Shown here: positions 24,742 through 47,454 of the stretch, piece by piece | Numbering within the stretch: position 1 is the first letter of the stretch | How the letters are laid out: the number at the start of each line of letters is the position of its first letter | The notes under the pieces: model-generated | The model's database searches: none | The model's input: only the letters and a program-made list of their open reading frames with translations | Told to the model about the DNA's origin: nothing | Assembly (NCBI GenBank): GCA_965213675.1 | Contig: OZ243916.1 | Coordinates: 1,024,001 to 1,088,000 of the forward strand | Direction of reading: 5' to 3' | Source of the DNA: an uncultured Candidatus Binatia bacterium | GTDB taxonomy: Bacteria; Desulfobacterota; Binatia; UBA9968; JAJDTQ01 | Length of the DNA: 64,000 bases | Position numbers and translations under genes: made by a program

Positions 24742-24770
24742 CCCCACAAATGAGGTAAAGAGGTAAAGAT

Positions 24771-26954
24771 TCACGGGGTGAGCGTTCTGGCGATACGGAA
24801 CCCGACGTCGATGAACCGGTACGTGGAGGAGTACCTGAAGCGGTTGGCGGACCGGAGGTTCCTCGGTACGTCGAACCAGGAACCGCCGCGCAACACGCGC
24901 TGGCTGCAATCCCCCCCACTCACCCAAGCACTCCCGTCAGTCGGCGCTCCTTCGTAGCTGCCGTGCCAACAGTCCTCCACCCACTCCCGTACATTCCCAT
25001 GTACATCGTCCAATCCAAATCCATTCGCCAGATAACTCCCCACTGGTATCGTCCGCTTACGATAGTGCCCCTTCCAACCCAACCCGTACGTGTAGTTCCC
25101 GTTGTAGTTCGCCTGGTCCGTCCCAATCGTCGTTCCCGTATGAAACGGCCCTGCCGTCCCCGCTCGCGCCACATACTCCCACTCCGCCTCACTCAGTAGA
25201 CGATACCCCTTCCCTGTCCGCCTCGATAACCACGCCACGTACCCCTTCGCGTCCTCCCAACTCACGTTCACCACCGGTCGCCCCCCGCGTCCCCATCCCC
25301 TATCATCCGGCCGATACCCCCGACATCCTCCCCCTGCTACACACGCATCCCACTCCCCAAAAGTTACCTCGTACTTCCCCACCGCAAACGCCTTGCCTAT
25401 CCGCACCCGGTGACGCGGCCCCTCGCCCGAGTCCCTGCCTTCTTCTCCATCCGGCGATCCCATCGTGTACTCCCCAGACGGTACCACCACCATCTCCGGA
25501 CACTCCCCGCAGTCCCGAAACTCCCGCCCAGGTCGCTCCGCCTCCTCCCGGGCCTTCCGAGCCGCCGCCGCCTTCGCTCTTGCCCTTCTCTCCCGTTCCG
25601 CGGCCTCCTGAGCCAAACGCTCCCGCTCCGCCTCCTCCTGTTTTCGCCGCGCCGCTTCCGCTCGCGCTACATCCTCCCCGATCGCCTTCAATGCGCCAGC
25701 CTGTTCCCGCGTCAGGTATCCCGTCGCCGCCAACCCTTTCTCTTTCTGCCATGCCTCAATCGCACTCCGCGTCTTCTTCCCGAACAAGCCGTCCGCATAT
25801 CCGACCCCGAGTCGCAACTTCGCCAACCCCTGCTGGATCAGTACCCGCGCGGGCCGGTGCAAACCCAATGCATCTTCCATCGCCTTATGATCCGGCGCCT
25901 TCAATGCCGGTTCTCCTGGCAATGCGTCTTCCCGCGCCGGCGCCCTCGACATCGCAGCCCCTCCGGTCTCCGCTGTGCTGTCTCTCTTGTCGTCTCCCTC
26001 CTCCTTTCCTCCCAGGGCTCCTGCCTTTGCTGCGTCCATCCCCGGCCGCGCTGGAAAACCCTTTCCTTCCGCCGCCACCGCCGCCAGCACCACTTTCCCC
26101 GATCCCATCAGGTTCGCCTTCTGCACCCGACGGTGCACCCGACGCGCCGCCCGCGTCATCCAACGGTCCAGGTAACCCTTCGCCTCCTCCGCCGTCACTC
26201 TCCCGTCCTTGTCCGCGTCCCCTTTGCCGTACAGCGCGTTCAGCAGATGATGCGTGAACAGCCCGTGCCTTGCCTTGTCGTCCCACGACGCAATCTGCTC
26301 CCCGCTCGCCGCAGTCAACGCCGTCACCTTCCGCGATGCCGCTTGCGGCAGCGTCGCCTTCACAAACACCGGGCTCGCCGAACCTATCAGTCCGCCCTCG
26401 TTCGTCCCGCCCGAAAAACACGCGTCCAGAAACACCGCCACGCTCCGGGCCTCCGCCAACTTCCCCAGGTTCTCGTACAACAAATCGATGGGATACCCGT
26501 CGTCCTCCGCCGCCTTCGGGTCAACGTCCACCGGCAGCAAATATCCCCTCTTGTCGCGTTGCCCCGGCACCCCGTGCCCTGAGTAGAACACCACCACGTC
26601 CGAGCCCCCCTCCGGGTCCAGGTAGCTCCACAAAAGGCTCCCCGATGGGTCGCTCCGGGTTCCCAAGGCATCGTACAGTTGCCGCCGCCGCGCGTCCCGC
26701 AAATCGATCACGTTCTCCGCATCGAATCCCAGCACATCCAGCACGTACCTCTTGAACGCCTCCGCGTCCCGGTGCGCATACGTTACGTCCGGAACGTCCC
26801 GGTGCTCGTAGTCCCCGTTGCCGATGATCACCGCCACCCCACGCGCATTGCGCACCTCCGCCCACGCCAATGGACTCTCATGAGTCATCCACAGGCCCGC
26901 GCCCATGGCAACTACCCAGACAACAGCCACCCGCCGCCAGCAACGTCTTCTCAT
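24771..26954 (-). CDS. Secreted caspase-like (C14) + peptidoglycan-binding + coiled-coil + FGE/SUMF1 C-type-lectin-fold protein; candidate DGR target 1
   Basis: Signal peptide; YSGHG and LDACFSG dyad; IQQGLAKL..ADGLFGKKTRSAIEAWQ; FRDCGECPEMV..PVVNVSW..RLLSEAEWEY..RGGSW..GFRIAR. Confidence 0.9.
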   Translation of the reverse strand: MRRRCWRRVAVVWVVAMGAGLWMTHESPLAWAEVRNARGVAVIIGNGDYEHRDVPDVTYAHRDAEAFKRYVLDVLGFDAENVIDLRDARRRQLYDALGTRSDPSGSLLWSYLDPEGGSDVVVFYSGHGVPGQRDKRGYLLPVDVDPKAAEDDGYPIDLLYENLGKLAEARSVAVFLDACFSGGTNEGGLIGSASPVFVKATLPQAASRKVTALTAASGEQIASWDDKARHGLFTHHLLNALYGKGDADKDGRVTAEEAKGYLDRWMTRAARRVHRRVQKANLMGSGKVVLAAVAAEGKGFPARPGMDAAKAGALGGKEEGDDKRDSTAETGGAAMSRAPAREDALPGEPALKAPDHKAMEDALGLHRPARVLIQQGLAKLRLGVGYADGLFGKKTRSAIEAWQKEKGLAATGYLTREQAGALKAIGEDVARAEAARRKQEEAERERLAQEAAERERRARAKAAAARKAREEAERPGREFRDCGECPEMVVVPSGEYTMGSPDGEEGRDSGEGPRHRVRIGKAFAVGKYEVTFGEWDACVAGGGCRGYRPDDRGWGRGGRPVVNVSWEDAKGYVAWLSRRTGKGYRLLSEAEWEYVARAGTAGPFHTGTTIGTDQANYNGNYTYGLGWKGHYRKRTIPVGSYLANGFGLDDVHGNVREWVEDCWHGSYEGAPTDGSAWVSGGDCSQRVLRGGSWFDVPRNLRSANRFRYSSTYRFIDVGFRIARTLTP
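24804..24875 (-). repeat. DGR-like variable repeat VR1 (partner at 45337-45408)
   Basis: 15 substitutions against VR2 in 24 codons, all non-synonymous, 14 at codon positions 1-2, flanked by near-identical sequence. Confidence 0.8.
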
Positions 26955-26982
26955 CGAAACCCTCCCGAACCTCGACTTGTCC

Positions 26983-27621
26983 CTACCGCGTCAGGCTCCG
27001 CGCCACGCGGAAACCAATCTCGTCCCCCCGAAACGAAAACCCCATGGTCAGATTGTCGTAGTTGCGGAATCCCGCGCGGAGTACCGACTTCCAGTCATTC
27101 CAGGAACCGCCGCGGATCACGTGCGCGGAACAAATCTCGTAGGAGGGCGGTTGCCACGAAGCATCGGGCGTCGCATCCGCCGCCGGACCGAAGCGGACGT
27201 TCCTGCCGGAGAAACGCGGCGCGGCGCTCAGCTTCTCCACCGTGATCTCGGCGCCCTCGATGACCATATGCACGTCGGTATCCGGGTTTAGGTTCATTCT
27301 ACCTAGGAGAATGGTGAGCCATTCCTCCACCTTGTGCGCCGGCGCGGAGGTGACGTAAGCGTATCTGCGCATCGCTGCATCGGAGCTCATCAGGGTGTGA
27401 CTCCGGTAACCCGGAAACTCCCCCGCCATGACGTCGATGATGTTCCGCGCCTCGCCCGGAGCAAAGTAGCGCAGCGTCACCGTGTAGGGCGTCACCAGCC
27501 CGTGCCTGCCATCTGGAAACGACTCACCGCGCTGCGCCGGCCCACCCGGCTGCACCGCGCAACCCGACAACACCCACGCAAGCACTACCGCGCCAACGAC
27601 TGTCTTCAAGAGATGTGACAC
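26983..27621 (-). CDS. Putative lipoprotein: unrecognised 'EFPGY' domain fused to an FGE C-terminal fragment
   Basis: GGAGG RBS plus GTG start, lipobox VLSGC, PYTVT..VMAGEFPGY..EEW domain, tail VIRGGSW..IGFRVAR. Confidence 0.75.
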   Translation of the reverse strand: MSHLLKTVVGAVVLAWVLSGCAVQPGGPAQRGESFPDGRHGLVTPYTVTLRYFAPGEARNIIDVMAGEFPGYRSHTLMSSDAAMRRYAYVTSAPAHKVEEWLTILLGRMNLNPDTDVHMVIEGAEITVEKLSAAPRFSGRNVRFGPAADATPDASWQPPSYEICSAHVIRGGSWNDWKSVLRAGFRNYDNLTMGFSFRGDEIGFRVARSLTR

Positions 27622-27674
27622 GTGGTGGCCTCCTTCCGTCGATGCGGTCCGCTTATCATACATTTCGGGGGGGC

Positions 27675-28631
27675 CTATTCGGAAATCGCCCTATCGTCGC
27701 CGGATCGTGTGCGGTTGGAGGTGGGGACGATCCTCTCCACGGTGATGTCCGTGCCCTCGATGGCGATGCGGACATCCCTGTCGGGATCGAAATTCATGTC
27801 CGCGAGCAGGATCGCCAGCCATTCCTCCATCCTGGCGGTCGTGGCCGTGGTGACATAGGCGTACCGCCGCACGCCCTGATCGGTACGCATCAGCTGGTGG
27901 CTACGGTAGCCCGGAAACTCCTCCGCCATGACCGCGATCATGGTCAACGCTTCTCGTCTGTCAAAGAGCCTGAAAGTGACGGTGTAGGGGGTCTCGATGC
28001 CACCACCCGGAACATCGCGGAAGCGGGCGAGCCTCGCGACCAGCCCGTTTCCGAGGGTCGTGGCGAGTTCCCTGGCGTGGCCCCCCACCACCCGGGCGAT
28101 GCAGCCCGGTTCGTCGAGGCAACCCGGGGGACCGAGGTACGACTGCTCCACTTCGACGCTGTCCTCGAACCGGTTGGAAGCCAGGTCGTAGATGTCGCTC
28201 TTCATGCGGATCCCGATGCGGGTGACGCTGTACAAGGATCTGACTTCCGCACGGACGCTGATCAACGCCAAGGCGCGCACCGCATGCGTGGCATCGGCGC
28301 TCTGGTTCATCAACTTGGCCATGTCGATGAGGTCCATCCGGGGGCGACGGTCGCGTATCTGCCAATCGAGGTCCACGGCCACCGCGGCCTCCTCGACGAC
28401 TCGGAAACCCGCGCGGCTCATTACGCCTTTAAGCTCGGCGATGACGCGCTGGAAGATCTCGTGACTGCGTGGGATGGTGGATGGGTCCTCGTCCTCGCCC
28501 GCCACGAGCACCGGCACGGCAGCGGCGCGAGCCGGCGCCTGCGCAAAGGATACGGCCGGCGTCATCAAAATGATGAGCGCCGCGAGGATCGCTCCCAGCA
28601 GAAAACCAGAGTATTGCGCATGGATCCGCAT
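27675..28631 (-). CDS. Secreted hypothetical protein with 'EFPGY' domain
   Basis: Signal peptide; full-length similarity to 32613-33674. Confidence 0.8.
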   Translation of the reverse strand: MRIHAQYSGFLLGAILAALIILMTPAVSFAQAPARAAAVPVLVAGEDEDPSTIPRSHEIFQRVIAELKGVMSRAGFRVVEEAAVAVDLDWQIRDRRPRMDLIDMAKLMNQSADATHAVRALALISVRAEVRSLYSVTRIGIRMKSDIYDLASNRFEDSVEVEQSYLGPPGCLDEPGCIARVVGGHARELATTLGNGLVARLARFRDVPGGGIETPYTVTFRLFDRREALTMIAVMAEEFPGYRSHQLMRTDQGVRRYAYVTTATTARMEEWLAILLADMNFDPDRDVRIAIEGTDITVERIVPTSNRTRSGDDRAISE

Positions 28632-28683
28632 ATTCGATTCCCTATGTTGGTTCTACCCCGTGGGTCGCGAACTCTCCGACCCC

Positions 28684-29109
28684 CTACCCGCCGCCCGGGA
28701 CGGACGGTGCTCCGTACGTCTCCACTCCGCTTGGCGCATCGATGACATTCACGGGATGGTCCCGCTGGATGGACACCACCTCGGGCATACCGAGAAGGCG
28801 CATCACCGTGGCAGCGTCGGCTTCCAACGCCATCATCGGCAGGTTCTCGAAGACCCTGGCCGATTCCTGGGCCGGGGCGTCGAGCCGCGCGAGGATGGCC
28901 TCCGCCACGATCCCGATGGCATTCGCCGACGGCGCGGCTGCGCCTGGCGGACCCGCGGCGCCTTCCGGCAACGCGAACTCGACGACGATTTTCTGACGCT
29001 CCGAGGCCTTCTGCATTCCCGGGCCGGCCGGTGCGCATGCCAGCCCCGCCGCCATGAGCAGCCATGCCGCGGTCATCCTGCCTGCGTTCCTCATGGTCGT
29101 CATCGTCAT
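28684..29109 (-). CDS. Small lipoprotein, stand-alone subtilase propeptide/I9-inhibitor-like
   Basis: Lipobox-like AGLAC; RVFENLPMMALEAD..LLGMPEVVSIQRD resembles the prodomain of the upstream S8 gene (RRYEHLPVIAMKVD..VRIWRD). Confidence 0.6.
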   Translation of the reverse strand: MTMTTMRNAGRMTAAWLLMAAGLACAPAGPGMQKASERQKIVVEFALPEGAAGPPGAAAPSANAIGIVAEAILARLDAPAQESARVFENLPMMALEADAATVMRLLGMPEVVSIQRDHPVNVIDAPSGVETYGAPSVPGGG

Positions 29110-29113
29110 GTCT

Positions 29114-31192
29114 TCAGCCTCCAATGGGCTGCCAAGCGCCTTCCGTGCCTGACGGTGCGCCCGTGCTCGGCGGTGCGTCCTTGTTCGCCGGCTCGTCTTT
29201 GGCTGGCGGTTGGCCGCCTTTGTCGCCGCCACCCGCGGCCCCGGAATCGCGATCGCTTCCATGGACCCCCAACGCCCGCAGCGCACCCGCCACGTTCAAC
29301 GTGGGCTTGCGGATGCCATTGCGTTCATCCGTGATCTGCCGCCCGGCGTTCAGCAACGCACGGTAGAGATCGCGCACCGGGCTACGCGGCGACGCCTGTC
29401 GCAACACGGCAAATGCCCCGGCCACGTGCGGCGCGGCCATGGAAGTTCCGGGAAGCTCCTTGAACGGCGCTTCGTTCGTCGGCGACCGCGGCACAGACGA
29501 CAGAATATCCACACCCGGAGCCAGAATGTCGAGCGTTGGCGCGCTGTTGGAGAAGTCCGCCACTTTCGTCTGCTTGTCCACGGCGCCGACGCTCACGATG
29601 CCACGTACGCACGCGGGATGCGCAATGCCCCGGGTCTGACCTTCGTTGCCCGCCGCGGCCACGATCACCACCCCCTCCGCGGCCAGCAGGCGCACGGCGA
29701 GGTCGTAGATGCTGTCCTGGCATGGCGTGGCGGCGTGCCGCGGCGAACCGAGGCTCATGTTGATGGACGCGATGTGGACACGCCCGCTCCGGGCCACGCC
29801 GATGAGCCAGTCCAGGGCGCCCAGCACCGTGGAATTGCTCGCGCCGAGTTTCCCGTCCACGCGACTGAAGACATTGATGGCGATCAGGCCTGCTTCCGGG
29901 GCCACGCCCGCCATATCCACGCCCCGGCCCACGGCGATGCCAGCCACGTGGGTGCCGTGGTTAGCCACCGGCCGGGCTGCTCCGGGCCCCGCCATCCGGC
30001 GTTTCCCGTTGGGGCAGCGGCTTGAGAAACAGGCCTCGGCCACGGGACGTCCGGCGATGAAAGGATGGTTCACGTCCACACCCGTGTCCACCACGGCCAC
30101 GAACGTACCTTTGCCCGTATAACCGCCTCGGTGCGGCCCGTGCGCCCCCACCATGGGTCCGCTGTCGTCCAGGTAAGGTACCACCGGGAGGTCTCGCCAG
30201 ATGCGCACCCCGGCATCGTAGCCCTTGGCCGCGGCGAGTCCCTTGGCGTCCACCTTCATGGCAATGACCGGCAGGTGCTCGTAGCGGCGCACCTCGGTCA
30301 TCCGGCCCCGTCCGCCCACGGCCTTCACGAACGCGTCACCGGTCACCGCCACCAGCCCGGCCTTCCAACCGGTGCTCCCGCTCGTCTCATCGCCGGTGAC
30401 CGGGTGCCAACCCGTCACCAGCACGGCCGCCGTCTCCTGCCCGTCGGCCGCGGCCGACAACATTTCGTACTCGTCCACCGCGGCCCGCTCGCCGCTCGAT
30501 TCCGTCGATCCTGGGGATAACGGGCCGCCTGGGACTGGCGCCGTACCCGGCGCCGCCGGGTCGGCGGCGGTCATGGACACGACGCGCTCCGACCGATCTC
30601 GGGTCTCTGGAGCGCGCCGCACCGAAGCGTTGGGCGATGCGGGAGTGTCCGACTCCTCCATGGCGCTTGGAGCAGCTTGGGCGAAGACCACAATCTCCAC
30701 CCGCCGATGTCGCGACGAGTTTGCCGGCATACCCGCCAACAGCCGATCCTCACCGTAGCCCGCGTGGCGAAACCGCGCAGGTTCCAGTCCGAGCCCCTGC
30801 ACCAGGTACCGCACCACCGCACCCGCGCGCCTTTCGGAGAGTTGCTGGTTGTACGCCGCCCTCCCGGAGGCGTCGGTGTGGCCGTAGACACCCACGTCGT
30901 AGGATCTGAGCCGATCTCCGCCCAACGCCGCGCCCAGTTCGTCCAGTTGCTGCCGCGCCCTGGCGGTCAACTCGGCCGAGTTGACCGCGAACGGCACCCT
31001 CAGGTCCACAGAACGCTGTTCCTCCCCCGTCACCGGCACCAGCCGGTCCGTCAGTTCCTGGCGGTCGACGGGTTGCGACCGCGCCGCCGCCGGCACGAAC
31101 ACCGGCGCGATCACGACAAGGAGCGCGAGCGTGAGCCCCGCCAGCCGCGACCCCGGACGTGCCCACCCTGGCATACGCGAGAACCGCTTCAT
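29114..31192 (-). CDS. OmpA-domain + S8 subtilase fusion protein
   Basis: Signal peptide; GHTDASG..NQQLSERRA..GYGE..RRVEI (OmpA_C); VAVVDTG, HGTHVAG, AAGN, GTSMAAPHVAG. Confidence 0.92.
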   Translation of the reverse strand: MKRFSRMPGWARPGSRLAGLTLALLVVIAPVFVPAAARSQPVDRQELTDRLVPVTGEEQRSVDLRVPFAVNSAELTARARQQLDELGAALGGDRLRSYDVGVYGHTDASGRAAYNQQLSERRAGAVVRYLVQGLGLEPARFRHAGYGEDRLLAGMPANSSRHRRVEIVVFAQAAPSAMEESDTPASPNASVRRAPETRDRSERVVSMTAADPAAPGTAPVPGGPLSPGSTESSGERAAVDEYEMLSAAADGQETAAVLVTGWHPVTGDETSGSTGWKAGLVAVTGDAFVKAVGGRGRMTEVRRYEHLPVIAMKVDAKGLAAAKGYDAGVRIWRDLPVVPYLDDSGPMVGAHGPHRGGYTGKGTFVAVVDTGVDVNHPFIAGRPVAEACFSSRCPNGKRRMAGPGAARPVANHGTHVAGIAVGRGVDMAGVAPEAGLIAINVFSRVDGKLGASNSTVLGALDWLIGVARSGRVHIASINMSLGSPRHAATPCQDSIYDLAVRLLAAEGVVIVAAAGNEGQTRGIAHPACVRGIVSVGAVDKQTKVADFSNSAPTLDILAPGVDILSSVPRSPTNEAPFKELPGTSMAAPHVAGAFAVLRQASPRSPVRDLYRALLNAGRQITDERNGIRKPTLNVAGALRALGVHGSDRDSGAAGGGDKGGQPPAKDEPANKDAPPSTGAPSGTEGAWQPIGG

Positions 31193-31222
31193 CCCCGACT
31201 CCTTTCTCTTCGTTCGGCCCTA

Positions 31223-32023
31223 TCAGAAGAACCGCCGGGAACGGACCGTTGCACACGCCGACCCATCGTCCGAGCGGACCTGTCGCTGGCCGAGCGGCGC
31301 GGCGCTGCATCCCTCTTCACGGCCGGAATGCCACCGATCCTGGTGAAGGGGACGACCGTGGTTCCGGCCATCGCCAGCCCGTGCGTCGTCGCCCTGTCGG
31401 AAGCCGACTCCGTCATCAAGGAAACGGGCGCCGCGCGCCTCATCCAGCAGCGATGTGAAGGCCGCGTCCTTCTGATAGCGCACCCACCAGTCCATGACCG
31501 CGGCCACATACTTCAGAGTGCCGTCGTGCATCACCGGCCCCTCGTTGCAGCGCAACAGCGGCCCACGCCGGTAGTGCGACAACGTCAGGTCCCATCGTCC
31601 ATCGTAGCGCCGGTTGAGCCGCTCCAGCAAGGTCACACCCACGCCCGCGTTGGCGCGCGGGTGCTCAAGCCCGTAGGCGCGAAGGCCCAATTCCTCCCAT
31701 GCGACGGACGGCAGCACCTGCATGACGCCCACGGCCTTCGGTGCGCTGCTTTCGCGGAAGCGCTCCTTCCGCCCGACCCGCGCCACCGCCAGCGCCAGTT
31801 CCGGCGGCACCGAGCTCTTGAGGGCCGCCGCCGCCACCGCCCGCTGCCCCACGGTCCAACGCGTCTCACCCCACACCGATCCGTGTCCGAACAGTCCCAG
31901 AAACACCGCCGCCAGCGCGAGCCGGCCCACGCTTGGAAACCGGCGCACTTGTCGTTGCCGCTGGCTGCTCATGTTCTCCTTGTCACGTGTCACGCGCACT
32001 CCGCAATCCTTCTTGTTCCCCAT
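31223..32023 (-). CDS. Transglycosylase SLT-domain-like protein
   Basis: VPPELALAVAR.., GVMQVLP, LEHPRANAGVGVTLL, YDGRWDLTLSHY, TLKYV; start uncertain. Confidence 0.75.
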   Translation of the reverse strand: MGNKKDCGVRVTRDKENMSSQRQRQVRRFPSVGRLALAAVFLGLFGHGSVWGETRWTVGQRAVAAAALKSSVPPELALAVARVGRKERFRESSAPKAVGVMQVLPSVAWEELGLRAYGLEHPRANAGVGVTLLERLNRRYDGRWDLTLSHYRRGPLLRCNEGPVMHDGTLKYVAAVMDWWVRYQKDAAFTSLLDEARGARFLDDGVGFRQGDDARAGDGRNHGRPLHQDRWHSGREEGCSAAPLGQRQVRSDDGSACATVRSRRFF

Positions 32024-32191
32024 GACATGTTTCCTTTCTCGACATTGGGCGCCACGAACGACGCTTCACGGTCCAGATGGAAGGCATTGAAGGGTATTTG
32101 TGAAAGGCGGGCAATGGCCCCTGAAAGACTGCCCAAGTCCGGCAAGGCCCCACGTTCGTTCGAGAGTTCGGTCTCCCCGTCGTCATTCCCG

Positions 32192-32516: not shown

Positions 32517-32543
32517 CGCGGAATCCAGCGTCGCCCCACATTC

Positions 32544-32579
32544 AACGTGGGTATCGGAAGCACCCGATACCCACGTTTT
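32544..32579. terminator. Probable rho-independent terminator downstream of the 32613 gene
   Basis: AACGTGGGTATCGG-aagcac-CCGATACCCACGTT-TT, 14-bp perfect stem. Confidence 0.55.
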
Positions 32580-37654: not shown

Positions 37655-39511
37655 TTATCTGGACCGTGACGCCCGCCGGCTGCCGGTGGAAACGAGATCC
37701 CGCGCCACCCGGAAACCGGTGTCGAAGTTGCGGCTTTCCGCCGCATCGCTTCCGCGCGCCGCCGACCGAAGCACACCCGGATGGCTGTACCAGGAGCCGC
37801 CGCGCAACATGCGCCGGTCGCAGTCGCCCCTTCGGAGCCAGGCCGCGCCGTCGTCCGGCCCACCCGCATAGTCCTTGTGAAGACAATCCTCCACCCACTC
37901 CCAAGCGTTCCCGAGCATGTCCGACAACAGAAACCCGTTCTCCCCGTGGGTTCCCACCTCCGCGGTGCGGACTCCTTGGTCGCGACACTCGGACGTGGCG
38001 ACAGCGCGATAATTCGCCCGGAATCCCGCGTCCGCACCGTTGGCGTTCTGGCACTGCCCCGTCACCTCGTCACCCCAGTACCGCGCCGAGGTCGTGCCGG
38101 CCCGGGCCGCGTACTCCCACTCCGCCTCCGACAACAACCGGTAACCCCGGCCCGTCTTCTCCGACAGCCACGCCGCGTATGCCTTGGCGTCATCCCAACT
38201 GACGCACACCACGGGATGGCGTTGCCCTTGATCGAAGCCCGGCTCCCGCCACGAACGCGCACCATCCTGCCGCCATTGGTCCAGACTGCCGTCTCCGAAC
38301 CAGCACCCGCCCGCCGTCTCGCGTCCGCTCTCCTCCACGAAGGCGGCATACTCTTCCCGGGTCACCTCGTACTTTCCCACGGCCAACGGCGACTCAATCC
38401 GAACCTGGCGTTGCGGCCCTTCATCCTTACCTCGCGTCCTCTCATCCGGCGGCGAACCCATCGTGTACGCACCGGGGCCGATCACAATCATTTCCGGGCA
38501 CGCATCGCAGTCGCGGAAGACCTGGCCGGGCCCGAGCGGCGCGCCCGGACCGAGCCCGGCCTCAACACCCGCCATTGACTTGGCGGAAAGAAATTCCCGG
38601 ACCGCGTTGACCGGCCTGCCATGGGAACGGGAATGGACCATGACCCGCAACTCGACCTTGTCCGTCAGGAAGACCAGCTCGCCCTTCAGATCGTAGACGG
38701 GATCCCGGAGATCGCCGCCCCCCACCGACGCCCCTCGGGGAGGCGCCGCGAGCAATTCCACGACGCGGTTCCTTAGCCCCCCTGCCACATGTTCCGCGAG
38801 CGGAGACTTCCCGCGCACACGCTGATCGTCGATGGACACGTCGCCGAGCCCTCCCCGCAGGCTTCGGGCGACATCGCCCGCCACGGCGCTCAGGGCCTGT
38901 TCCAACGACAACGGCGCGTACAGCCATTTCTCTTGAAAGAACACCGACGCACTGCCCAGCCGGCTCAGGTCCGTCGCAATGGCCGCGCAATAGAGCGTGA
39001 GTCCACTCTCCACGGCGGTGCTCGTGCACGAAAGAATGATGGGCGTCTGATGGCTGCGGAGCGCCGCCTGATAGGCCTCGAACCAGTCGGCCGCGCCCGT
39101 GTTCTCCAACGCGCGCGCGACGGCTGCGTGTTTCCTGGGGTCCGTGACAGTGAACAGTCCGATCTCCCCTGTTTCCCTCAGCGCATTGATCATCCAGCCA
39201 TAAACCAACCGGCGCTGGCGACCTCCCAACGTCACGGCGCGCGGGTCCAGGGGTTGGAACGTGATCCGCTTGTCGTCTTGCGGAGCCTTCCGTATCGCGT
39301 CCGGGAACGACCTGAGCAGGTTGCCAGCCCAATCCTTGGCCGCCTCCCTGGCGTGAGCCGAACCGTCCCGTGGCCCGGCCCCTTGGCCCCAGACCGTAGA
39401 CACACCTGCCGCGGCAAGCGTCAGCGATACGAACCAAGCCCAAACCCCCGTCGCCAGACGATGCCGCCAGCGATGCTGCGTCTTCGTTGTCATCGTCTTC
39501 CTCCGGCTCAA
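37655..39511 (-). CDS. Secreted FGE/SUMF1-domain protein with unknown N-terminal domains
   Basis: Signal peptide; FRDCDACPEMI, HPVVCVSW, RLLSEAEWEYAARAG, DMLGNAWEW, RGGSW, GFRVAR. Confidence 0.88.
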   Translation of the reverse strand: MSRRKTMTTKTQHRWRHRLATGVWAWFVSLTLAAAGVSTVWGQGAGPRDGSAHAREAAKDWAGNLLRSFPDAIRKAPQDDKRITFQPLDPRAVTLGGRQRRLVYGWMINALRETGEIGLFTVTDPRKHAAVARALENTGAADWFEAYQAALRSHQTPIILSCTSTAVESGLTLYCAAIATDLSRLGSASVFFQEKWLYAPLSLEQALSAVAGDVARSLRGGLGDVSIDDQRVRGKSPLAEHVAGGLRNRVVELLAAPPRGASVGGGDLRDPVYDLKGELVFLTDKVELRVMVHSRSHGRPVNAVREFLSAKSMAGVEAGLGPGAPLGPGQVFRDCDACPEMIVIGPGAYTMGSPPDERTRGKDEGPQRQVRIESPLAVGKYEVTREEYAAFVEESGRETAGGCWFGDGSLDQWRQDGARSWREPGFDQGQRHPVVCVSWDDAKAYAAWLSEKTGRGYRLLSEAEWEYAARAGTTSARYWGDEVTGQCQNANGADAGFRANYRAVATSECRDQGVRTAEVGTHGENGFLLSDMLGNAWEWVEDCLHKDYAGGPDDGAAWLRRGDCDRRMLRGGSWYSHPGVLRSAARGSDAAESRNFDTGFRVARDLVSTGSRRASRSR

Positions 39512-39696
39512 AGATTCCCGGGGAAGGCGTACTGGCGTCGGGAAGCTGTCCCGTCTCTCCCCCTTGACCGGATCTCTTTCCCCGCACTATATCAAATCCG
39601 TTTTGTTGTGACCGAGGTGGAAGACCTGCGGACACCTTCACTGTCTATCGAGGTCACTGATGACCGGGAAGCGAAGGCCCGGGGCAACGCGCTGGG

Positions 39697-40308
39697 CTAT
39701 AGAAATTTGACGAGGGCTACGATCAGGCCGCCTTGGGCGATCAGGGCGCCGAACAGCCATTTCACCAGTTCAGCCTTCACCGTCTCGATGGCTGCGCTGG
39801 TTTCGTGGCGCAGGGCTTCAACGCTGGCCTTTGTTTCTTGCCGTAGGGCATCGATGCTGGCCTCAACCTTGGCGATGTCCGCCTTGGTTTCTTGCCGCAG
39901 GGATTCGATGCTGGCCTCAACCTTGGCGATGTCTGTCTTGGTTTCTTGCCGCAGGGCATCGATGCTGGCCTCAACCTTGGCGATGTCCGCCTTGGTCTCT
40001 TGTCGCAGGGATTCGATGCTGGCCTTGGTCTCTTGTCGCAGGGATTCGATGCTGGCCTTGGTCTCTTGTCGCAGGGATTCGATGCCGGCCTTGGTCTCCT
40101 GTCGCAGGGATTCGATGCCGGCCCTGGTCTCCTGTCGCAGGGATTCGACCTCTGTCTTTACCGCGGCGACATCGGCTTTTGTGGCGAGGTTGGCGTTGAG
40201 GAGGGCGACATGCTCTTCGGCGAGTGTCTCGGCCTGCTTCTCGGTGAAGCCGCTCTCGGTCAGACGCTTGACGAAGCGATGCGTGTCGAAGGCGATAGCC
40301 TCAGCCAT
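39697..40308 (-). CDS. DUF1640/CCDC90-like coiled-coil protein with tandem repeats
   Basis: AFDTHRFVKRLTESGFTEKQAE, LATKAD, repeated SLRQETKA, C-terminal TM LVKWLFG. Confidence 0.85.
   Translation of the reverse strand: MAEAIAFDTHRFVKRLTESGFTEKQAETLAEEHVALLNANLATKADVAAVKTEVESLRQETRAGIESLRQETKAGIESLRQETKASIESLRQETKASIESLRQETKADIAKVEASIDALRQETKTDIAKVEASIESLRQETKADIAKVEASIDALRQETKASVEALRHETSAAIETVKAELVKWLFGALIAQGGLIVALVKFL
39830..40150. repeat. In-frame tandem repeats (33-bp and 54-bp units)
   Basis: TTGTCGCAGGGATTCGATGCTGGCCTTGGTCTC-type units (ESLRQETKASI) followed by ESLRQETKADIAKVEASI units. Confidence 0.9.
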
Positions 40309-40416
40309 GAAGCGAACATAACAACCTTACCCGTGCGGGACAAGTACAAACGAGGCTTCCAACCTGGTTCCCGGCACCAGTGAAAAGACAATCGCCGCCA
40401 TGCGCCGGCAACCCAG

Positions 40417-40674
40417 GGAAGGTCTGAACAATGGCGGTTGTGGCCGGCAAGCGGAACGGCCGACCTGTTAGTGGCGTATACGGCTCTATCCGCTTCTCCA
40501 GACGCTTCCACGGTATCAGCCCCTCCATCTTCTCCAAAAACTCCTCCTGCCGCGTCCGCCGCTTCTTCCGATCATGTTCCATCTCCGCGAAGCTCGCCTG
40601 TCTCATCGTTTCCCCTCCATGCACTGCCGTTTTCGCCATTATGACGTGCGAAAGGTCTCTTGTTCAGATCTTCA
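40417..40674 (-). mobile_element. Internally deleted IS5-family element (258 bp)
   Basis: TIRs GGAAGGTCTGAACAA / TTGTTCAGATCTTCA, flanks CCAG and CTAG, transposase N-terminus MRQASFAEMEHDRKKRRTRQEEFLEKMEGLIPWKRLEKRIEPY from 40606. Confidence 0.85.
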
Positions 40675-40805
40675 CTAGCGCACCTTGAGGTGAATTCGTT
40701 ATGAATTGCGGGAACGAAGGAGGCCACGGAATGACGGAGCGCATGCGACGCGGCGCTGACAAGACCCGTCGCGGAAATGTTCGGGCGCTCTGAACGGATG
40801 CATTC

Positions 40806-42035
40806 ATGACCAGGAGCGGGATCAAGGTAGACGTGACGGAGCTTGTGGATCTGACCGGCGAGTTGATCAGGATCCCGAGTTTCTGTCCGGACGAGACCCC
40901 GGTGGCGCTGTTCCTGCGGGACTACCTCTCGGATCGCGGTTACCAGGTAGAGCTTCAGGAAGTGGAGCCCGGCCGCCACCAGACCATCGCCACGCTGAAG
41001 GGCTCGGGCCGCGGCCCGAGCCTGATGTTCAACGGCCACATCGACATCAACTCCCTCACCCGTGGGGGCAAGCGGGACCCCTGGACGCCGTCGGTGGAGG
41101 GAGACCGGCTCTACGGCCACGGAGTCCAGAACATGAAAGGCGGCGTCGCCTCCATGATCGCCGCCGCCGAGGCCATCCGCCGCGCCGGTTTGACGTTGCG
41201 CGGCGACTTGGTGCTGGCCTGCGTGGCGGGCGAGACCCAGGGCGGCGAGGGCACCCACTTCCTGATGGAGAGCGGCTTCCGCACCGACGCCGCGGTGCTG
41301 ACTGAGCCCTTTGGCATCGGCAACCTCGTCACCGTGCACGGCGGCATCGTCCACTTCGCCATCCACACCTACGGCGTCACTGGACATGTGAGCCGGATCG
41401 AGGAGACCGTCAACGCCGTGGAGCAGATGACCCGCGTCATTGACGCATTGCGGCACGTCACATTCACCTGCACGCCGAGGGCCGACCTCCCTGCCCTGCC
41501 CCGACTGAACGTCGGCAGCATCATCGGCGGCCGCGGCGAGGGCTACGTGCTGACCGAGCCGCCCTACGTGCCCGACCTCTGCACCATCATCGTGGACGTG
41601 CACTTCGTGCCGGGGCAGAGCGTGGACTCGGTCATCGCTGACGTGAGGCGCGCCCTCGACCCCCTGAAGGACGGCGACCCGGGTGTCGAATACGCCATCG
41701 AGATCCCGCCGCCCGCCTTCTTCAAGGGCTGCCGGCGGCTAGTGATGGACCCCCTGGACGTGCCCCCGGACGCCGCCATCGTCCAGGCCGTGGCCCGGAA
41801 CCACCAAAGGGTCACCGGCTCCCCGCCAAGGCTCATCGGCGCCCACCTGCCCATGTCCTACTCCGCCGGCGACAGTTGCTGGTTGTGGAAATACGGCATT
41901 CCCTGCCTCCACTACGGCCCCGGCGGCGGCTTCCTGGACCCCGGCCCGGACGGCAGCTACATTTTCATCAGCGAGATGGTTACGTGCGCCGAGGTGCTGG
42001 CGCACACGGCCATGGAAGTGTGTGGAGCGGAATGA
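40806..42035 (+). CDS. M20 family (ArgE/DapE-like) deacylase
   Basis: LMFNGHID, RLYGHGVQNMKGG, AGET, LTEP, YGPG. Confidence 0.88.
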   Translation: MTRSGIKVDVTELVDLTGELIRIPSFCPDETPVALFLRDYLSDRGYQVELQEVEPGRHQTIATLKGSGRGPSLMFNGHIDINSLTRGGKRDPWTPSVEGDRLYGHGVQNMKGGVASMIAAAEAIRRAGLTLRGDLVLACVAGETQGGEGTHFLMESGFRTDAAVLTEPFGIGNLVTVHGGIVHFAIHTYGVTGHVSRIEETVNAVEQMTRVIDALRHVTFTCTPRADLPALPRLNVGSIIGGRGEGYVLTEPPYVPDLCTIIVDVHFVPGQSVDSVIADVRRALDPLKDGDPGVEYAIEIPPPAFFKGCRRLVMDPLDVPPDAAIVQAVARNHQRVTGSPPRLIGAHLPMSYSAGDSCWLWKYGIPCLHYGPGGGFLDPGPDGSYIFISEMVTCAEVLAHTAMEVCGAE

Positions 42036-42243
42036 GCACCATGGAACTTCTCCCCCCTTCGCTGTTCAACTCCGCCCGCGGGCCCGTGACACCGACGCCG
42101 CACTCACTCATTCCGTGCGTCACCCCGGATCAGCTCCGGGGCCGGTTCCGGGATCCAGAAGCAGCAAGGAACCGGCCGTGCGGCCGGCATCGTCGTGTCG
42201 CATGGCCGCTGGGTCAGGGCCGGGATGGTCGGGAGGCGGTGCG

Positions 42244-43152
42244 GTGAGCAACAAGGACTACGATGTCACCGGCGCGGTAGACCTGCATGTTCACTGCGGG
42301 CCGGAGGGAATCCCGCGCCGGTTCGACGCGCTATCGCTGGCGCGGCACGTGGAGCGATCGGGGCTCGGCGGCGCGGTGCTCAAATCGCACATGGCCGCCA
42401 CCGGTAGCTGGGCACGGATGGCCCACGATGCCACCGGCGTCCGGCTGCACGGATCGGTGGTGCTCAACCACTATGTCGGCGGCATCAATCCCGCGGCGGT
42501 GCGCGGCGCCCTGGGACCGTCGGTGGGCGGCGAGCCCTGTCTCAAAGTCGTGTGGCTGCCGACGGTCCACGCGGCAGCGCATCTCAGCGCCCGGCAACAC
42601 GAGGGCGAACAGTACGACATCCCGCCCGAGTGGTGCGGCGGAGCGGTTTCCGCACTGGCCCGGCCCCTTGACGAAGTCGAACCCATCAACGTGCTTGCCG
42701 CCCACTTGCGGCCGCGCCTGGACGAGATCCTGCGCATGGCCGCCGACCATGATCTGGTGCTGGCCACCGGGCACGCGGGGCGGGACGAAGTGTTCTACGT
42801 CATGGAAAGGGCCAACGCGCTCCGAGTGCGAAAGGTCATCGTCACCCACCCCTGCTACGATCCCCCGGCCATCGACGTTGCGGAGCTCGCCCAGCTGGCC
42901 GCGGCCGGGGCCTACATTGAGCTGAGCTTCATCCTGGTGGACATGGGCCTGGTGTCGTACGAGCACACCGCAGCGATCCTGAGGCGGGTGGGCGCGGAGC
43001 AGACCATCCTGTCCACGGACGTGGGGCAGGTGGATCGGGTCGCTCCCGCCGAAGGACTGGCTGAACTCGGAGCGGGTCTGCTCGCGGAGGGAGTACCGCG
43101 TGAGGACATCGACACCGCGATGAAGCGTAATCCCCGGTTCCTGGTAGGGTAG
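42244..43152 (+). CDS. Metal-dependent hydrolase, amidohydrolase-like (DUF6282-type)
   Basis: GAVDLHVH, LKSH, VGGINP, WLPT, ATGH, VTHP, STDVGQ; paralogue of 12250-13122. Confidence 0.75.
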   Translation: MSNKDYDVTGAVDLHVHCGPEGIPRRFDALSLARHVERSGLGGAVLKSHMAATGSWARMAHDATGVRLHGSVVLNHYVGGINPAAVRGALGPSVGGEPCLKVVWLPTVHAAAHLSARQHEGEQYDIPPEWCGGAVSALARPLDEVEPINVLAAHLRPRLDEILRMAADHDLVLATGHAGRDEVFYVMERANALRVRKVIVTHPCYDPPAIDVAELAQLAAAGAYIELSFILVDMGLVSYEHTAAILRRVGAEQTILSTDVGQVDRVAPAEGLAELGAGLLAEGVPREDIDTAMKRNPRFLVG

Positions 43153-43218
43153 TGAACCCGTTCGTCCGGAGCCATCAACCCGAAAAACCATGTCCGTTCG
43201 AACGTCCGGTGTCCCGTC

Positions 43219-43529
43219 CGTCATTCCCTGCCCCCCTCATCGTCATTCCCAAGTCCCTATTGATCGTCTTTCCCAAGACCCTACTCTTCGTAATTCCCGC
43301 GAAAGCTTGCCCCCGACCCCGATCGGGGGCGGGAATCCAGGGGCGGTGGTGGGGCGCCCAAACCGCTGACCCCGGCCACCCCTGGATTCCCGCTTTCGCG
43401 GGAATGACGAAGAGGGGAGACTTGGGGTTGAGGATGAGGGGTGCCGGGGTTGACGAAGAGGGGGCAGCCAGGAATGACGAAGAGCGGGACCTGGGGTTGA
43501 CGATGAGGGGTCCGGGAACGACGAAGAGG
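43219..43529. repeat. Large palindromic repeat cluster: paired dRS3-like repeats flanked by degenerate ~21-24 bp tandem units
   Basis: Left units CGTCATTCCC..., core 43290-43408, right units GGGAATGACGAAGAGG / GGGGTTGACGATGAGG. Confidence 0.8.
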
Positions 43530-43551
43530 TTGTAGAAGGATTGCGGTTTGC

Positions 43552-44724
43552 CTACCAGGCCATCTCCAGGCACTCCAGCACCTGCGATGCGGAGTGGATC
43601 TTCTTGGGGTTGTTGTGGGTGCTGATGTCGTCCAGCGCCGCCTCGGCCAGGGAAGGCAGCGCGTCGCGGGGGATCTCCAGGTCCCGCAGCCGCAACGGCA
43701 GCCCCATCTCCACGTTCATGCCGTAGACCACCTCGGGCGCCTCGGCGGCGGCCTTGCGGTCGTCAGCCTCGTCGACCCCCATGACCCGGGCCATGCGGGC
43801 CATGGCTTCGGTGGTGCCGTCGAGGTTCCAGCGCATGGCGTAGGGCAGCATCAGGGCGTGGATGTTGGCGTGGGGCACCGTGAAGCGGCCGCCGATGACA
43901 TGCACGATGCCGTGGTGAATGCCGGTCCAGGCGCTGTAGACGCCCATGCTGGAGAGGGTGGCGGCCACCTGCATCTCGCCGATGGCCTCGAGGTCGTTCA
44001 TGTCGTTCACAAGCCGTGGCAGCCAAGTGGTGATGGGGCCGATGGCGGCCAGACAATAGGCCTGGCTCAGGATCTGGGTCTGCGTCGAGTAGACGGCTTC
44101 CACGCAGTGGGCCAGCGCATTCATGCCGGATGCGGCCAGGAGTTTCGGCGGAGCGGTCTGGGCGGCCTCCGGATCCAGCATCACCGTCCGCGGCGACATC
44201 TTGGGATCGGCGAGAATGAGCTTGTGGCCGCCTTCCGCCAGCCCCGCGGAATAGCTGTATTCGCCGCCGGAGAACGTCGTCGGGATGGCGATGTGCGGCA
44301 GCTTGGGCGCCGGCATGGGCGGCACTTCCTTCTTGTCGGGCGGGATGAAGTGGGTCGCCAGATCCTTCAGCGGACGGCCCTCGGCCAGGAGCGCGGCCAT
44401 ACCCTTGGCGGTGTCGATGGAGCTGCCGCCGCCCACGCTCACGAACGCGTCCGCGCCGGCATCCGCGGCCCGCTGCGCCGCCACGCCAATGGAATCCGTG
44501 GGCGAATGCGGCTGCACCGTGTCGAAGACTCCCACGCACAGATCGCCCAAGGCGTCGCGCACCGCATCCAGCAGGTAGGTCTTGGCGATGGACGGCGAGG
44601 TGACGACAAACACCCGGCTCGCCTCCAGGCGTCGGACCTCCTCCGCCAACCGATTTACCACCCCGCGGCCGAAAACAATGCGCTCCACGCGCGGATTACT
44701 GTACTCGAACGCTGAAACCGCCAT
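43552..44724 (-). CDS. Iron-containing alcohol dehydrogenase (maleylacetate reductase-like)
   Basis: VGGGSSIDTAK, AIPTT, SGMNALAHCVE, HHGIVH, PHANIH. Confidence 0.9.
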   Translation of the reverse strand: MAVSAFEYSNPRVERIVFGRGVVNRLAEEVRRLEASRVFVVTSPSIAKTYLLDAVRDALGDLCVGVFDTVQPHSPTDSIGVAAQRAADAGADAFVSVGGGSSIDTAKGMAALLAEGRPLKDLATHFIPPDKKEVPPMPAPKLPHIAIPTTFSGGEYSYSAGLAEGGHKLILADPKMSPRTVMLDPEAAQTAPPKLLAASGMNALAHCVEAVYSTQTQILSQAYCLAAIGPITTWLPRLVNDMNDLEAIGEMQVAATLSSMGVYSAWTGIHHGIVHVIGGRFTVPHANIHALMLPYAMRWNLDGTTEAMARMARVMGVDEADDRKAAAEAPEVVYGMNVEMGLPLRLRDLEIPRDALPSLAEAALDDISTHNNPKKIHSASQVLECLEMAW

Positions 44725-44829
44725 CCCTCACCTCCTGGATAATCGGTACGATTTGAGACACCCGGGCGGGTTTGTCAACGGCTCTTCTCACTTCAATGGA
44801 ACAGCGAAGTCCTCGCGGAAGCCCCGGCT

Positions 44830-45297
44830 TCATGCATCCGCGACCTCGAACGCCGTCAGGTTGCGCGTCTCACGACCGAACTCCACGGCGATGAGATGGA
44901 CCGGCTTCCCCGTGCTCCGGTAGCGGTCCGCGTAACCCCTCGAACGCAACCATCGCCGAACCCGGCGGCGACAACTCCACCACCTTGAACTCGAACAGCC
45001 GGCCGCTGTTGTCCAACTGCCGTGTGTCGTCCGGAACCCAGTAGCGCAACACTCGTTGAGGCTCTAGCGGACCTCCCGGTTGGGATAACCGAGTCAATAC
45101 ACGACCTTGCCCGCCAGCTTCTCCACCGATTCGACGGTCAGACGGCCGGTCTGGAACAGCAGGGCCTCGGTGCCGATGTGATCGACATCAAAGGCCGAGA
45201 GGAGTGCCCCGTGCCCGTCATCCGCTCCAGGGGCCAACGACCCGACCCGGCGCCGAAACAGCGTCTCCACCGGAAACCGGGGCGTGCCCGTCGCCAT
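44830..45297 (-). pseudogene. Degraded AAA-ATPase/PD-(D/E)XK nuclease gene fragment
   Basis: Frameshifted pieces ATGTPRF.VETL, LLSAFDVDHIGTEALLFQTG, LFEFKVVE, RGYADRYR..PVHLIAVEFGRETRNLTAFEVADA*. Confidence 0.8.
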
Positions 45298-45303
45298 AAA
45301 GAT

Positions 45304-47454
45304 TCACGGGGCGAGCGTTCTGGCGATACGGAACCCGAAGTCGTCGTACCGGTTCGAGGTGGGGTTCCTGAAGCGGTTGGCGGACCGGAGGAACCTCGGA
45401 ATGTCGCCCCAGGAACCGCCGCGCAACACGCGCTGGCTGCAATCCCCACCACTCACCCAAGCACTCCCGTCAGTCGGCGCTCCTTCGTAGCTGCCGTGCC
45501 AACAGTCCTCCACCCACTCATATACATTCCCATGTACATCGTGCAATCCAAATCCGTTCGCCAGAAAACTCCCCACTGGTATCGTCCGCTTACGATAGCG
45601 CCCCTTCGAACCCAACCCGTACGTGTAGTTCCCGTCGTAGTTCGCCTGGTCCGTCCCAATCGTCGATCCCATATGAAACGGCCCTGCCGTCCCCGCTCGC
45701 GCCACATACTCCCACTCCGCCTCACTCAGTAGACGATACCCCTTCCCTGTCCGCCCCGATAACCACTCCACGTACCCCTTCGCATCCTCCCAACTCACCC
45801 TTATCACTGGACGCCGCCCTCGTCCCCATCCCCCATCATCCGGCCGATACCCCCGACACCCTCCCCCTGCTACACACGCATCCCACTCCCCAAAAGTTAC
45901 CTCATACTTCCCCACCGCAAACGCCTCCCCTATCCGCACCCGGTGACGCGGCCCCTCCTCCCTGAACCTGCCTTTTTCTCCATCCGGCGATCCCATCGTG
46001 TACTCCCCAGACGGTACCACCACCATCTCCGGACACTCCCCGCAGTCCCGAAACTCCCGCCCAGGTCGCTCCGCCTCCTGCGCTCGACGCGCCGCCTCTT
46101 CACGCGCCTTCGCCTCCTGCGCCAACCGTTCCCGCCGCTGCCGCTCCAACTCTGCCCGCTGCCGTGCCGCCGCTTCCGCCATCTCCCTTGCCCTGCGCGC
46201 CTGCTCCTGCTTCTCTCGCGCGGTCTCTTCGCCCAATACCTTCAACGCCGCACCCTGCTCGGCCGTCAATCGCCCCGTCTCCCGCAACCCCTTCGAGGCC
46301 TGCCACCGCCGAATCGCCTCCTCCGTCCGCTTGCCGAAAATCCCATCCGGTTTCCCCAGATCGAAATTCAACGACGACAACCCCTCCTGGATCAGGCGCT
46401 TCGTCGCGAGATCCCAATCCGGCTCTGCCGCCGGCGCCGGGACCCTCTGAAACTCCGGTCGGGGAGGTTGAGCGCCGGGACCCGACAACCGCGGTCGCTC
46501 CGGAAAAACGCCGTCCGCACGGGCCAACGCCAGCACTTGGTCGCCACTTCCTTGCAGCGTGGCGTTCTGGATACGCTTTTCGTTCAGCCACAAGGAGTTG
46601 GTCATGTACAATTCGAGATAGGAGATCGCCTCCTTCGCCGTCACCCTGCGGTCGCTGTTAGCGTCTGCCTTCCCGTACAGTGCGTCCAGCAGGTGGTGCG
46701 TGAACCGCCCATGCTGCGCTTCCCTGTCCCAAGTGGCGATCTGCGTGCTCCTCGCCGCGGTCAGTACTACCAACCCTGCTCCCGTTTCGGGCAGCCGCGC
46801 CTCGGACGAGACCGCCGAACCCGTCACGATCACGCCCCCATCGCTGTTGCCCGAGAAGCAGGTGTCCAGGAACACCCGCACCGACCTGACGCCCCGCAGC
46901 TTTCCCAGATTCCGGTAAAGCACCTCGAGGCTGTACCCTTCCACCCGGGCCGCGGAGACCGGCACGTCCACGGGCAAGAGATAGGGCTTCCCCTTGTGCG
47001 CGCCAGGCACGCCATACCCTTGGTCCCCGGCAGGGACGCCGTGCCCCGAATAGTACACCAACACATCCTTGTCCGAGTCCTGGTCCATGCCTCGAAGGAG
47101 CGCCAGTCGCGCCTTAAGGTCGTTCATCTCCGTGTCCGGCCCGCCCAGCACCTCCAGCATCTGCCGCCGGGTGGCGTTGGGTATGTGAATCACGTCCTCC
47201 CTGGCGTAACCGAGGACGTCCACGACGTAGCGCTTGAACGCTTCCGCGTCCCGGAGCGCGTAGTCCACGGGCGGAATGTTTCTGGACTGGTAATCCTTGT
47301 TGCCGATGATCACGGCGATGCCAGGCCGCTCGGCTTGCGCTTCCGCGCTCCAGACCGCCACGCACACCACCGCCACGACGGCCGGCAACAACCCCTCGCA
47401 AACCGACCTTGTCCAGCTTGTCCACGGTGTCGCCACGAGTTCTTTCGCCATCAC
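45304..47454 (-). CDS. Secreted caspase-like + PG-binding + coiled-coil + FGE protein; candidate DGR target 2
   Basis: YSGHG and LDTCFSG; IQEGLSSL..PDGIFGKRTEEAIRRWQ; last ~780 bp colinear and near-identical to 24764-25546. Confidence 0.9.
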   Translation of the reverse strand: MMAKELVATPWTSWTRSVCEGLLPAVVAVVCVAVWSAEAQAERPGIAVIIGNKDYQSRNIPPVDYALRDAEAFKRYVVDVLGYAREDVIHIPNATRRQMLEVLGGPDTEMNDLKARLALLRGMDQDSDKDVLVYYSGHGVPAGDQGYGVPGAHKGKPYLLPVDVPVSAARVEGYSLEVLYRNLGKLRGVRSVRVFLDTCFSGNSDGGVIVTGSAVSSEARLPETGAGLVVLTAARSTQIATWDREAQHGRFTHHLLDALYGKADANSDRRVTAKEAISYLELYMTNSLWLNEKRIQNATLQGSGDQVLALARADGVFPERPRLSGPGAQPPRPEFQRVPAPAAEPDWDLATKRLIQEGLSSLNFDLGKPDGIFGKRTEEAIRRWQASKGLRETGRLTAEQGAALKVLGEETAREKQEQARRAREMAEAAARQRAELERQRRERLAQEAKAREEAARRAQEAERPGREFRDCGECPEMVVVPSGEYTMGSPDGEKGRFREEGPRHRVRIGEAFAVGKYEVTFGEWDACVAGGGCRGYRPDDGGWGRGRRPVIRVSWEDAKGYVEWLSGRTGKGYRLLSEAEWEYVARAGTAGPFHMGSTIGTDQANYDGNYTYGLGSKGRYRKRTIPVGSFLANGFGLHDVHGNVYEWVEDCWHGSYEGAPTDGSAWVSGGDCSQRVLRGGSWGDIPRFLRSANRFRNPTSNRYDDFGFRIARTLAP
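45337..45408 (-). repeat. DGR-like variable repeat VR2
   Basis: See VR1; encodes GDIPRFLRSANRFRNPTSNRYDDF versus FDVPRNLRSANRFRYSSTYRFIDV. Confidence 0.8.

Follow-up and report, generated by a model that had tools for sequence, protein, structure and literature searches.

The 64,000-nt window analysed here (contig OZ243916.1, positions 1,024,001 to 1,088,000; assembly GCA_965213675.1 of an uncultured Candidatus Binatia bacterium) carries two genes, A and B, in which a caspase-like peptidase is fused to a C-terminal FGE domain. Comparison with related genomes strongly supports the 3' ends of both genes as variable regions (VRs) of the type produced by diversity-generating retroelements (DGRs), situated on FGE-type C-type-lectin (CLec) folds. 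The components of a complete DGR, i.e., reverse transcriptase (RT), template repeat (TR) and the accessory protein bAvd, are all missing from this assembly. We regard the two ends as probably leftover, now frozen DGR targets whose core cassette has been lost in this lineage. Coordinates given without a contig or locus name refer to window positions, and all window genes described lie on the minus strand.

Hypervariable ends of two paralogous genes

Genes A and B share an FGE module of 783 nt (24764-25546 in copy A, 45297-46079 in copy B), which aligns without gaps and with 93.4% identity across 773 coding bases. The homology reaches from the first codons of the FGE domain to 7 nt past the stop codon. 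Within the module, 120 nt are homologous to the template repeats of relatives (VR_A, 24780-24899, with the homology ending at ACGCTC; VR_B, 45313-45432), and these enclose a hypervariable core, the 24 codons between GGSW and GFR (24804-24875 and 45337-45408, respectively).

In the core, the copies differ at 15 sites in 11 codons. All 11 codon differences are non-synonymous; codon positions 1-2 account for 14 of the 15 sites, and at 11 sites an A is present in one or the other copy. The rest of the module (codons 8-230, 669 nt) shows 35 differing sites in 28 codons, 9 of which are synonymous and 19 non-synonymous. That is, the divergence is 20.8% in the core (15/72 sites) compared to 5.2% (35/669) in the remaining module, such that the clustering in the core is far above the local background. 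Furthermore, the third-position C is invariant in the core, and this NNC pattern equals the outcome of AAC-codon mutagenesis. An earlier note on this DNA, made from the letters of the window, had described the two ends as colinear, indel-free and near-identical and had given the same numbers for the core; our alignment and codon table reproduce every one of these counts.

Both genes were delimited from open reading frame (ORF) listing, translation and Pfam annotation. Gene A (24771-26954) encodes 727 aa with the domains Peptidase_C14 (26220-26843, E 8.6e-14), PG_binding_1 (25689-25856, E 2.5e-10) and FGE-sulfatase (PF03781, 24786-25505, E 5.5e-50, full length). Gene B (45304-47454) encodes 716 aa when counted from a GTG start (an ATG follows one codon on) and shows the same order, i.e., Peptidase_C14 (PF00656, 46666-47322, E 3.6e-13), PG_binding_1 (46243-46398) and a full-length FGE-sulfatase domain (PF03781, 45319-46038, E 2.7e-50). 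Reading by eye, we find a hydrophobic N-terminal leader on both proteins, no cysteine among their C-terminal 40 residues (a catalytic formylglycine-generating enzyme has its cysteine pair in the C-terminal part), and in the caspase domains the motifs SGHG and D(A/T)CFSG (SGHG and DACFSG in gene A), which we take, from the motifs rather than from an alignment to a characterised enzyme, to be those of the His-Cys dyad. A and B would thus encode orthocaspase-like proteases that are tethered to the cell wall and presumably exported.

The variable residues sit in the C-terminal FGE-sulfatase/CLec domain of both proteins. Among solved structures, the module matches the periplasmic protein PvdO best (5hha, E 1.7e-64), which to our knowledge is not a DGR target, and it also matches the DGR variable protein TvpA (PDB 2y3c, E 2.5e-15) over module residues 116-257. 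Going by this sequence match, TvpA has in common with A and B the FGE-type CLec fold with variable residues at its C-terminal end; unlike them, TvpA is a stand-alone lipoprotein. The lectin tip of A and B would bind a variable ligand and steer the protease.

Templates and cassettes in related genomes

For comparison, we used 27 genomes of the same genus (G numbers below), with G000 denoting the own genome and C1 its 3.97-Mb contig. DNA matches to the variable end were found in 12 of the 27. Six of these genomes (G005, G007, G011, G015, G026, G027) have a target gene whose 3' end gives a VR-like match; an RVT_1 match over profile positions 8-204 and a second, TR-like match of 120 nt come after it within 2 kb. 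This second match is the template repeat. The ORF order in G026 is a target with Peptidase_C14, PG_binding_1 and FGE domains, bAvd (E 2.6e-15) and RVT_1 (E 2.2e-13).

All six TRs start with TGG AAC AAC AAA CCG AGG AAC CTC CGG TCC GCC AAC CGC AAC AGG AAC and continue, after three variable codons, with AAC CGG AAC AAC AAC AAC GG. The earlier note had reconstructed a template from the two paralogues alone; compared by eye, it agrees with the G015 TR in 25 of 28 codons. Two of the three middle codons, which are also variable among the relatives' TRs, are among the three that depart.

When the 120 positions are grouped by the six TRs, 11 of the 15 differences between A and B fall on the 25 positions that are always adenine and 3 on the 12 that are sometimes adenine; the 83 never-adenine positions have a single difference. 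The earlier note had asked whether mismatches to a template are restricted to adenines. Against the TRs of the relatives, VR_A and VR_B are changed at 15-19 of 30-32 adenine sites compared to 7-13 of 88-90 other sites (Fisher p 4e-7 to 3e-4). For the G015 TR, for instance, the changes amount to 16/30 adenine and 7/90 other sites in VR_A and to 15/30 and 7/90 in VR_B. The relatives' own TR-VR pairs behave alike (14-19/30-32 adenine sites, 2-11/88-90 others). Since the mismatches concentrate on template adenines as in these pairs, the ends of A and B are best read as genuine products of DGR mutagenesis, and the DGR-type character that the earlier note had assigned to them stands. Within G015, the VR inside the cassette has 11/90 non-adenine mismatches to its own TR, and VR2 of a remote target has 2/90. 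The bAvd-like frame of this cassette appears interrupted, as the reading goes on in another frame after a stop (L049:3780-4300).

We consider it very improbable that no retroelement was ever involved, i.e., that the paralogues diverged under positive selection on the binding surface or by patchy gene conversion with other FGE paralogues. Such an origin would fit that the core is a surface-determining part of the lectin fold, that non-synonymous changes prevail elsewhere in the module too (19 of the 28 differing codons), and that the genome holds further FGE genes (37655-39511 and a fragment at 26983-27663). However, it is at odds with the distribution of the differences over always- and never-adenine positions and with the invariant third-position C. 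In addition, the other FGE genes give at most weak similarity over 42 to 83 nt, the AAC-rich repeats of the relatives are RT-linked, and the element that follows VR_A (see below) is common to their bona fide cassettes.

Multi-target DGRs with remote targets are present in the genus, namely in G015 and G026. Scanning species-representative genomes, we obtained 124 relatives of the G015 RT and kept 80 of them. A TR-like 120-mer was found at 78 of the 80 RT loci, and 69 loci have two or more such matches, which we read as template plus VR. The kept loci belong to the same RT family at 60-100% amino acid identity, and their 120-nt template is mostly 72-100% identical in DNA. This RT family is widespread. 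It occurs in metagenome-assembled genomes (MAGs) titled with many phyla and classes; the titles are labels of the submitters, and at least one conflicts with the genus grouping.

Search for the core cassette

The own assembly is a MAG of 4.53 Mb in 21 contigs (C1 plus 20 small ones) with 97.7% completeness and 8% contamination. An RVT_1 profile search of the whole assembly gave no RT candidate, and the identical search detected the DGR RTs of the six relatives. A tblastn search of the G015 RT against the whole assembly gave a best E of 0.033. For bAvd, neither the profiles PF22296 and PF05635 nor the G026 bAvd protein had a match in the assembly. The accessory protein of the relatives scores as PF22296 (G026), so PF05635 is the wrong Avd family for this cassette.

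To locate a template, the earlier note had suggested a BLASTN search of the variable end against the whole assembly for an A-rich copy next to an RT. No such copy was found: with word size 7, both variable ends matched only each other and, weakly, a third FGE gene. Likewise, the cassette DNA of G015 and G026 showed, beyond chance short words and (in the case of G026) a dispersed repeat, only TR-to-VR matches at the two VRs. RVT_1 search and blastn also agree with the earlier statement that the window itself holds neither TR nor RT.

The third FGE-sulfatase gene (37655-39511, 618 aa, Pfam E 3.5e-59) has neither a caspase domain nor an AAC-type variable end. Within the genome, the only remaining DNA match of the VR flank lies in this gene and is weak, extending over 42 to 83 nt. 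Positions 37789-37830, considered as a template candidate, were rejected; they belong to this gene and show no AAC pattern.

We also related the small contigs to the main one. C1 covers at least 48% of 13 of the 20 small contigs at 84-97% identity. As these 13 are largely covered by C1, the small contigs add little new sequence; the 13 appear to be strain variants rather than missing parts of the chromosome. Such strain variants may account for the contamination figure of 8%. Contigs C6, C9, C14 and C20 have nothing in common with C1 and are lower in G+C (54-63%).

Metagenome contigs

Four public runs of one study contain the stretch, and we examined their contigs at 80% likeness over 1 kb. 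The runs represent a mixed community in which related FGE genes are numerous and several of them far deeper than this organism; the contigs break around the VR. Each run has 57-81 contigs on the 1-kb stretch, mostly less than 95% alike. Exact short contigs of VR_A are present in runs X1 and X4; contigs of 157 nt with 16 other letters, which we read as VR_B, are present in runs X2 and X4.

These data bear on whether A and B might be strain variants of one gene that were collapsed or duplicated by the assembler. The mixed community with its many related FGE sequences and the strain-variant contigs in the assembly would allow for this. However, a single 3.97-Mb contig carries both copies at a distance of 20 kb, their neighbours differ, their N-terminal halves have only 52% amino acid identity, and the neighbours of gene B are syntenic with a relative. 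Given these differing contexts and N-terminal halves, and given separate contigs for each end, an assembly artefact is scarcely credible.

When JGI metagenome contigs were scanned for any copy with the fixed positions of the VR, there was no hit, which is weak evidence as the own or very near genomes were possibly left out. The gene A protein forms a singleton cluster with no VR variants on record, and the GTG-start translation of gene B is not on record.

Elements downstream of the variable regions

Hairpins or cruciforms downstream of VRs are known as a requirement or enhancer of homing. VR_A is followed, at 24719-24764, by a post-VR element (ACCTCTTTACCTC, 24752-24764) and a GC hairpin (CCAGGGGGCGGAGCCCCCTGG, 24719-24739). 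Comparing by eye, we found this pair, at times imperfect, after 11 of the 13 variable ends compared; it is missing at gene B and at one truncated target of G015. The hairpin after VR_A folds as an 11-bp stem and occurs once in the genome when up to 2 mismatches are allowed. It could also be a terminator. That is, VR_A has the common (IMH-like) 3' end, the post-VR element and the hairpin, and VR_B has the common 3' end alone. PMC7517822 mentions a downstream hairpin/cruciform in homing.

Cassette sites and decay within the genus

In C1, the sequences that flank the G011 cassette are separated by 413 bp (C1:2731649-2732062), and for the G015 cassette this distance is about 570 bp (C1:1620256-1620827). 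With the flanks near-adjacent, both known cassette sites are empty here. The cassette location differs between relatives.

Intermediate states are visible in other genomes of the genus. G006, which consists of a single contig, holds a variable end and an almost unmutated TR (1/25 always-adenine sites changed), between which the RT is cut down to residues 1-36, 188-235 and 275-316 (G006:C1:356750-359900, about 475-1640). G010 has an RT remnant of 24 aa behind its variable end. In G002 and G023, VR-like ends with changes at 11-18 of the 25 always-adenine sites are found with no RVT_1 match. G020 and G024 have variable-end matches alongside many RVT_1 matches. The genus shows a cassette that has been repeatedly gained, moved, decayed and lost, leaving probably frozen binding specificities on the presumably exported caspase-like proteases.

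Two short repeats, dispersed in the genus, were observed next to these loci. An element of about 150 nt beside the G026 cassette (L045:1932-2082, in coordinates of the reverse-complemented cassette) has dozens of partial copies in the own genome, and an element of about 380 nt, which truncates the G015 orthologue of gene A (L051:4209-4587), has at least 6 copies here at 83-92% identity.

History of the two targets

The N-terminal half of gene A shares 82% DNA identity with a G026 gene; the FGE module of the latter is only 78% identical to that of A and to that of B. For the N-terminal half of gene B, the best DNA match is not above 66%. Since the modules of A and B are nevertheless much alike despite their unlike N-terminal halves, the FGE module was homogenised within this lineage. 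Gene conversion, with a tract ending just past the stop codon of gene B, would be the simplest explanation.

Over the whole 120 nt, the differences between VR_A and VR_B amount to 12.5%. The never-adenine sites are identical at 82 of 83 positions, where about 4 differences are expected at the 5.2% divergence of the module. This is suggestive, albeit not strong, of a rewriting of at least one end after the conversion; alternatively, the low divergence may stem from purifying selection on the motif.

The genomic surroundings were also compared. Gene B has PYC_OADA and Fe-ADH neighbours, and the same pair encloses a remote target in G015. The 3' end of gene A and its EamA neighbour are also found in G015, there truncated by a repeat. 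A and B are old remote targets and not cassette-internal ones.

From these observations we infer the following order of events. A DGR of the type seen in the genus (target - bAvd - RT - TR) would have rewritten the C-terminal lectin domain, mutating specifically the adenines of a 120-nt template rich in AAC. Gene conversion would first have homogenised the FGE module that A and B share, and at least one variable end would have been rewritten again afterwards. Later, the core cassette (bAvd, RT and TR) would have been lost, and the two remaining VRs would be frozen, evolving like ordinary sequence.

Loss or persistence of the retroelement

The earlier note had taken both ends for variable repeats of one remote template, belonging to a multi-target DGR that acts in trans in this genome. 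The own assembly does not bear this out: RT, bAvd, TR and cassette DNA were all unfound in 4.53 Mb, and the G011 and G015 cassette sites are empty. The DGR may still be alive if its bAvd-RT-TR core exists in the organism but is unassembled, resides on an unbinned mobile element or is present in part of the population, from where it rewrites both ends in trans. We hold this to be possible but doubtful.

Several observations weigh against a loss of the cassette or speak for a living DGR. The assembly is a MAG in 21 contigs, and circularity of C1 is undemonstrated, such that a 2-kb cassette could be missing. In G026 the cassette is found on a separate contig of 5.6 kb, and as it stands alone there, such a cassette seems to assemble badly. 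VR_A retains its post-VR element and hairpin complete, i.e., its putative cis elements are intact. The near-identity of A and B at never-adenine positions, against the higher divergence of the module, would look alike for an active and for a recently lost template. Two relatives run multi-target DGRs, and the G015 gene located at the PYC_OADA/Fe-ADH position of gene B is such a remote target. A further precedent is Thiohalocapsa PB-PSB1, for which PMC10907252 reports strain-variable intact RT/TR and diversification in trans. Finally, the adenine specificity rests on TRs of relatives, which share 77-82% identity with the VRs, the own template being unseen, and the mixed-community contigs of the four runs neither show nor exclude VR heterogeneity.

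On the other hand, a living DGR has to be reconciled not only with the failed searches and the two empty sites but also with small contigs that for the most part merely duplicate C1. VR_B lacks the post-VR element that most of the compared ends have, and neither the metagenome pattern scan nor the singleton cluster of the gene A protein gives any variant. The specific scenario in which a core outside the 3.97-Mb chromosome (in some cells or on an unbinned mobile element) still rewrites, in trans, two loci 20 kb apart, with hairpin-independent homing at B, is unlikely.

We favour loss over an unassembled or strain-variable cassette because the known sites are empty and decay is visible within the genus. 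The absence would then reflect true loss and not an incomplete assembly.

Neighbouring genes

Directly upstream of gene A, a putative lipoprotein of 226 aa is encoded (26983-27663). It contains only the last ~50 residues of the FGE domain (GGSW ... GFRVARSLTR) with a Pfam E of 6.8e-4, i.e., under the cut-off, and its gene has a 25-nt stretch in common with the 5' flank of the VR. Between A and B, a gene combining OmpA and subtilase (Peptidase_S8) domains is located at 29114-31192, a diverged partial copy of which is present on the small contig C11. A coiled-coil protein of 203 aa (39697-40308) consists of ESLRQETKA-like tandem repeats (CCDC90-like, E 1.6e-20).

Relation to known systems

Three published cases are close to our observations. 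In Treponema denticola isolates (2016, PMC4891356), targets are left without RT or TR, which the authors read as a loss of the core system. As in our case, the VRs of FGE/CLec-type targets depart chiefly at TR adenines from the TRs of related, DGR-bearing genomes; the targets left behind there include core-adjacent as well as remote ones. The cases differ in phylum (the record titles of our relatives read Candidatus Binatia), in the targets, which are caspase and PG-binding fusions here and lipoproteins there, and in scope, since we compare species of a genus and that study isolates of one species.

Cyanobacterial targets (2020, PMC7517822) resemble genes A and B in that an N-terminal orthocaspase-like peptidase is joined to a C-terminal DGR-diversified CLec domain, and in that the genomes contain scattered, paralogous remote targets whose VR is 3'-terminal. 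In contrast, those genomes retain RT and TR, and most of the targets are predicted to be cytosolic, whereas A and B carry a PG_binding_1 domain in addition to a leader peptide. Thiohalocapsa PB-PSB1 (Dore et al. 2024, PMC10907252) likewise has loci without their own RT or TR, with FGE-type CLec targets and peptidases nearby. At every non-adenine site, the VRs of its degenerate loci agree with a TR located elsewhere. Unlike here, where none was found, an intact RT/TR able to act in trans is present there.

These three cases cover the finding, and the system that the VRs point to is absent from this assembly. A multi-target DGR with remote targets would not be new even if true, because such systems are already known in the literature and in the same genus. 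Our literature search found no paper that joins diversity-generating retroelements and Binatia.

As the two genes show, a pair of paralogues suffices to recognise a clean DGR signature, and a template can be correctly reconstructed unseen. Such a signature is no proof of a living retroelement. In annotation, the term DGR leftovers should be used where VR-like ends lack RT and TR. Intact cassettes, an RT-deleted cassette that still has its template, and variable ends standing alone make the genus a natural series for the fate of a hypervariable receptor after its diversification stops.

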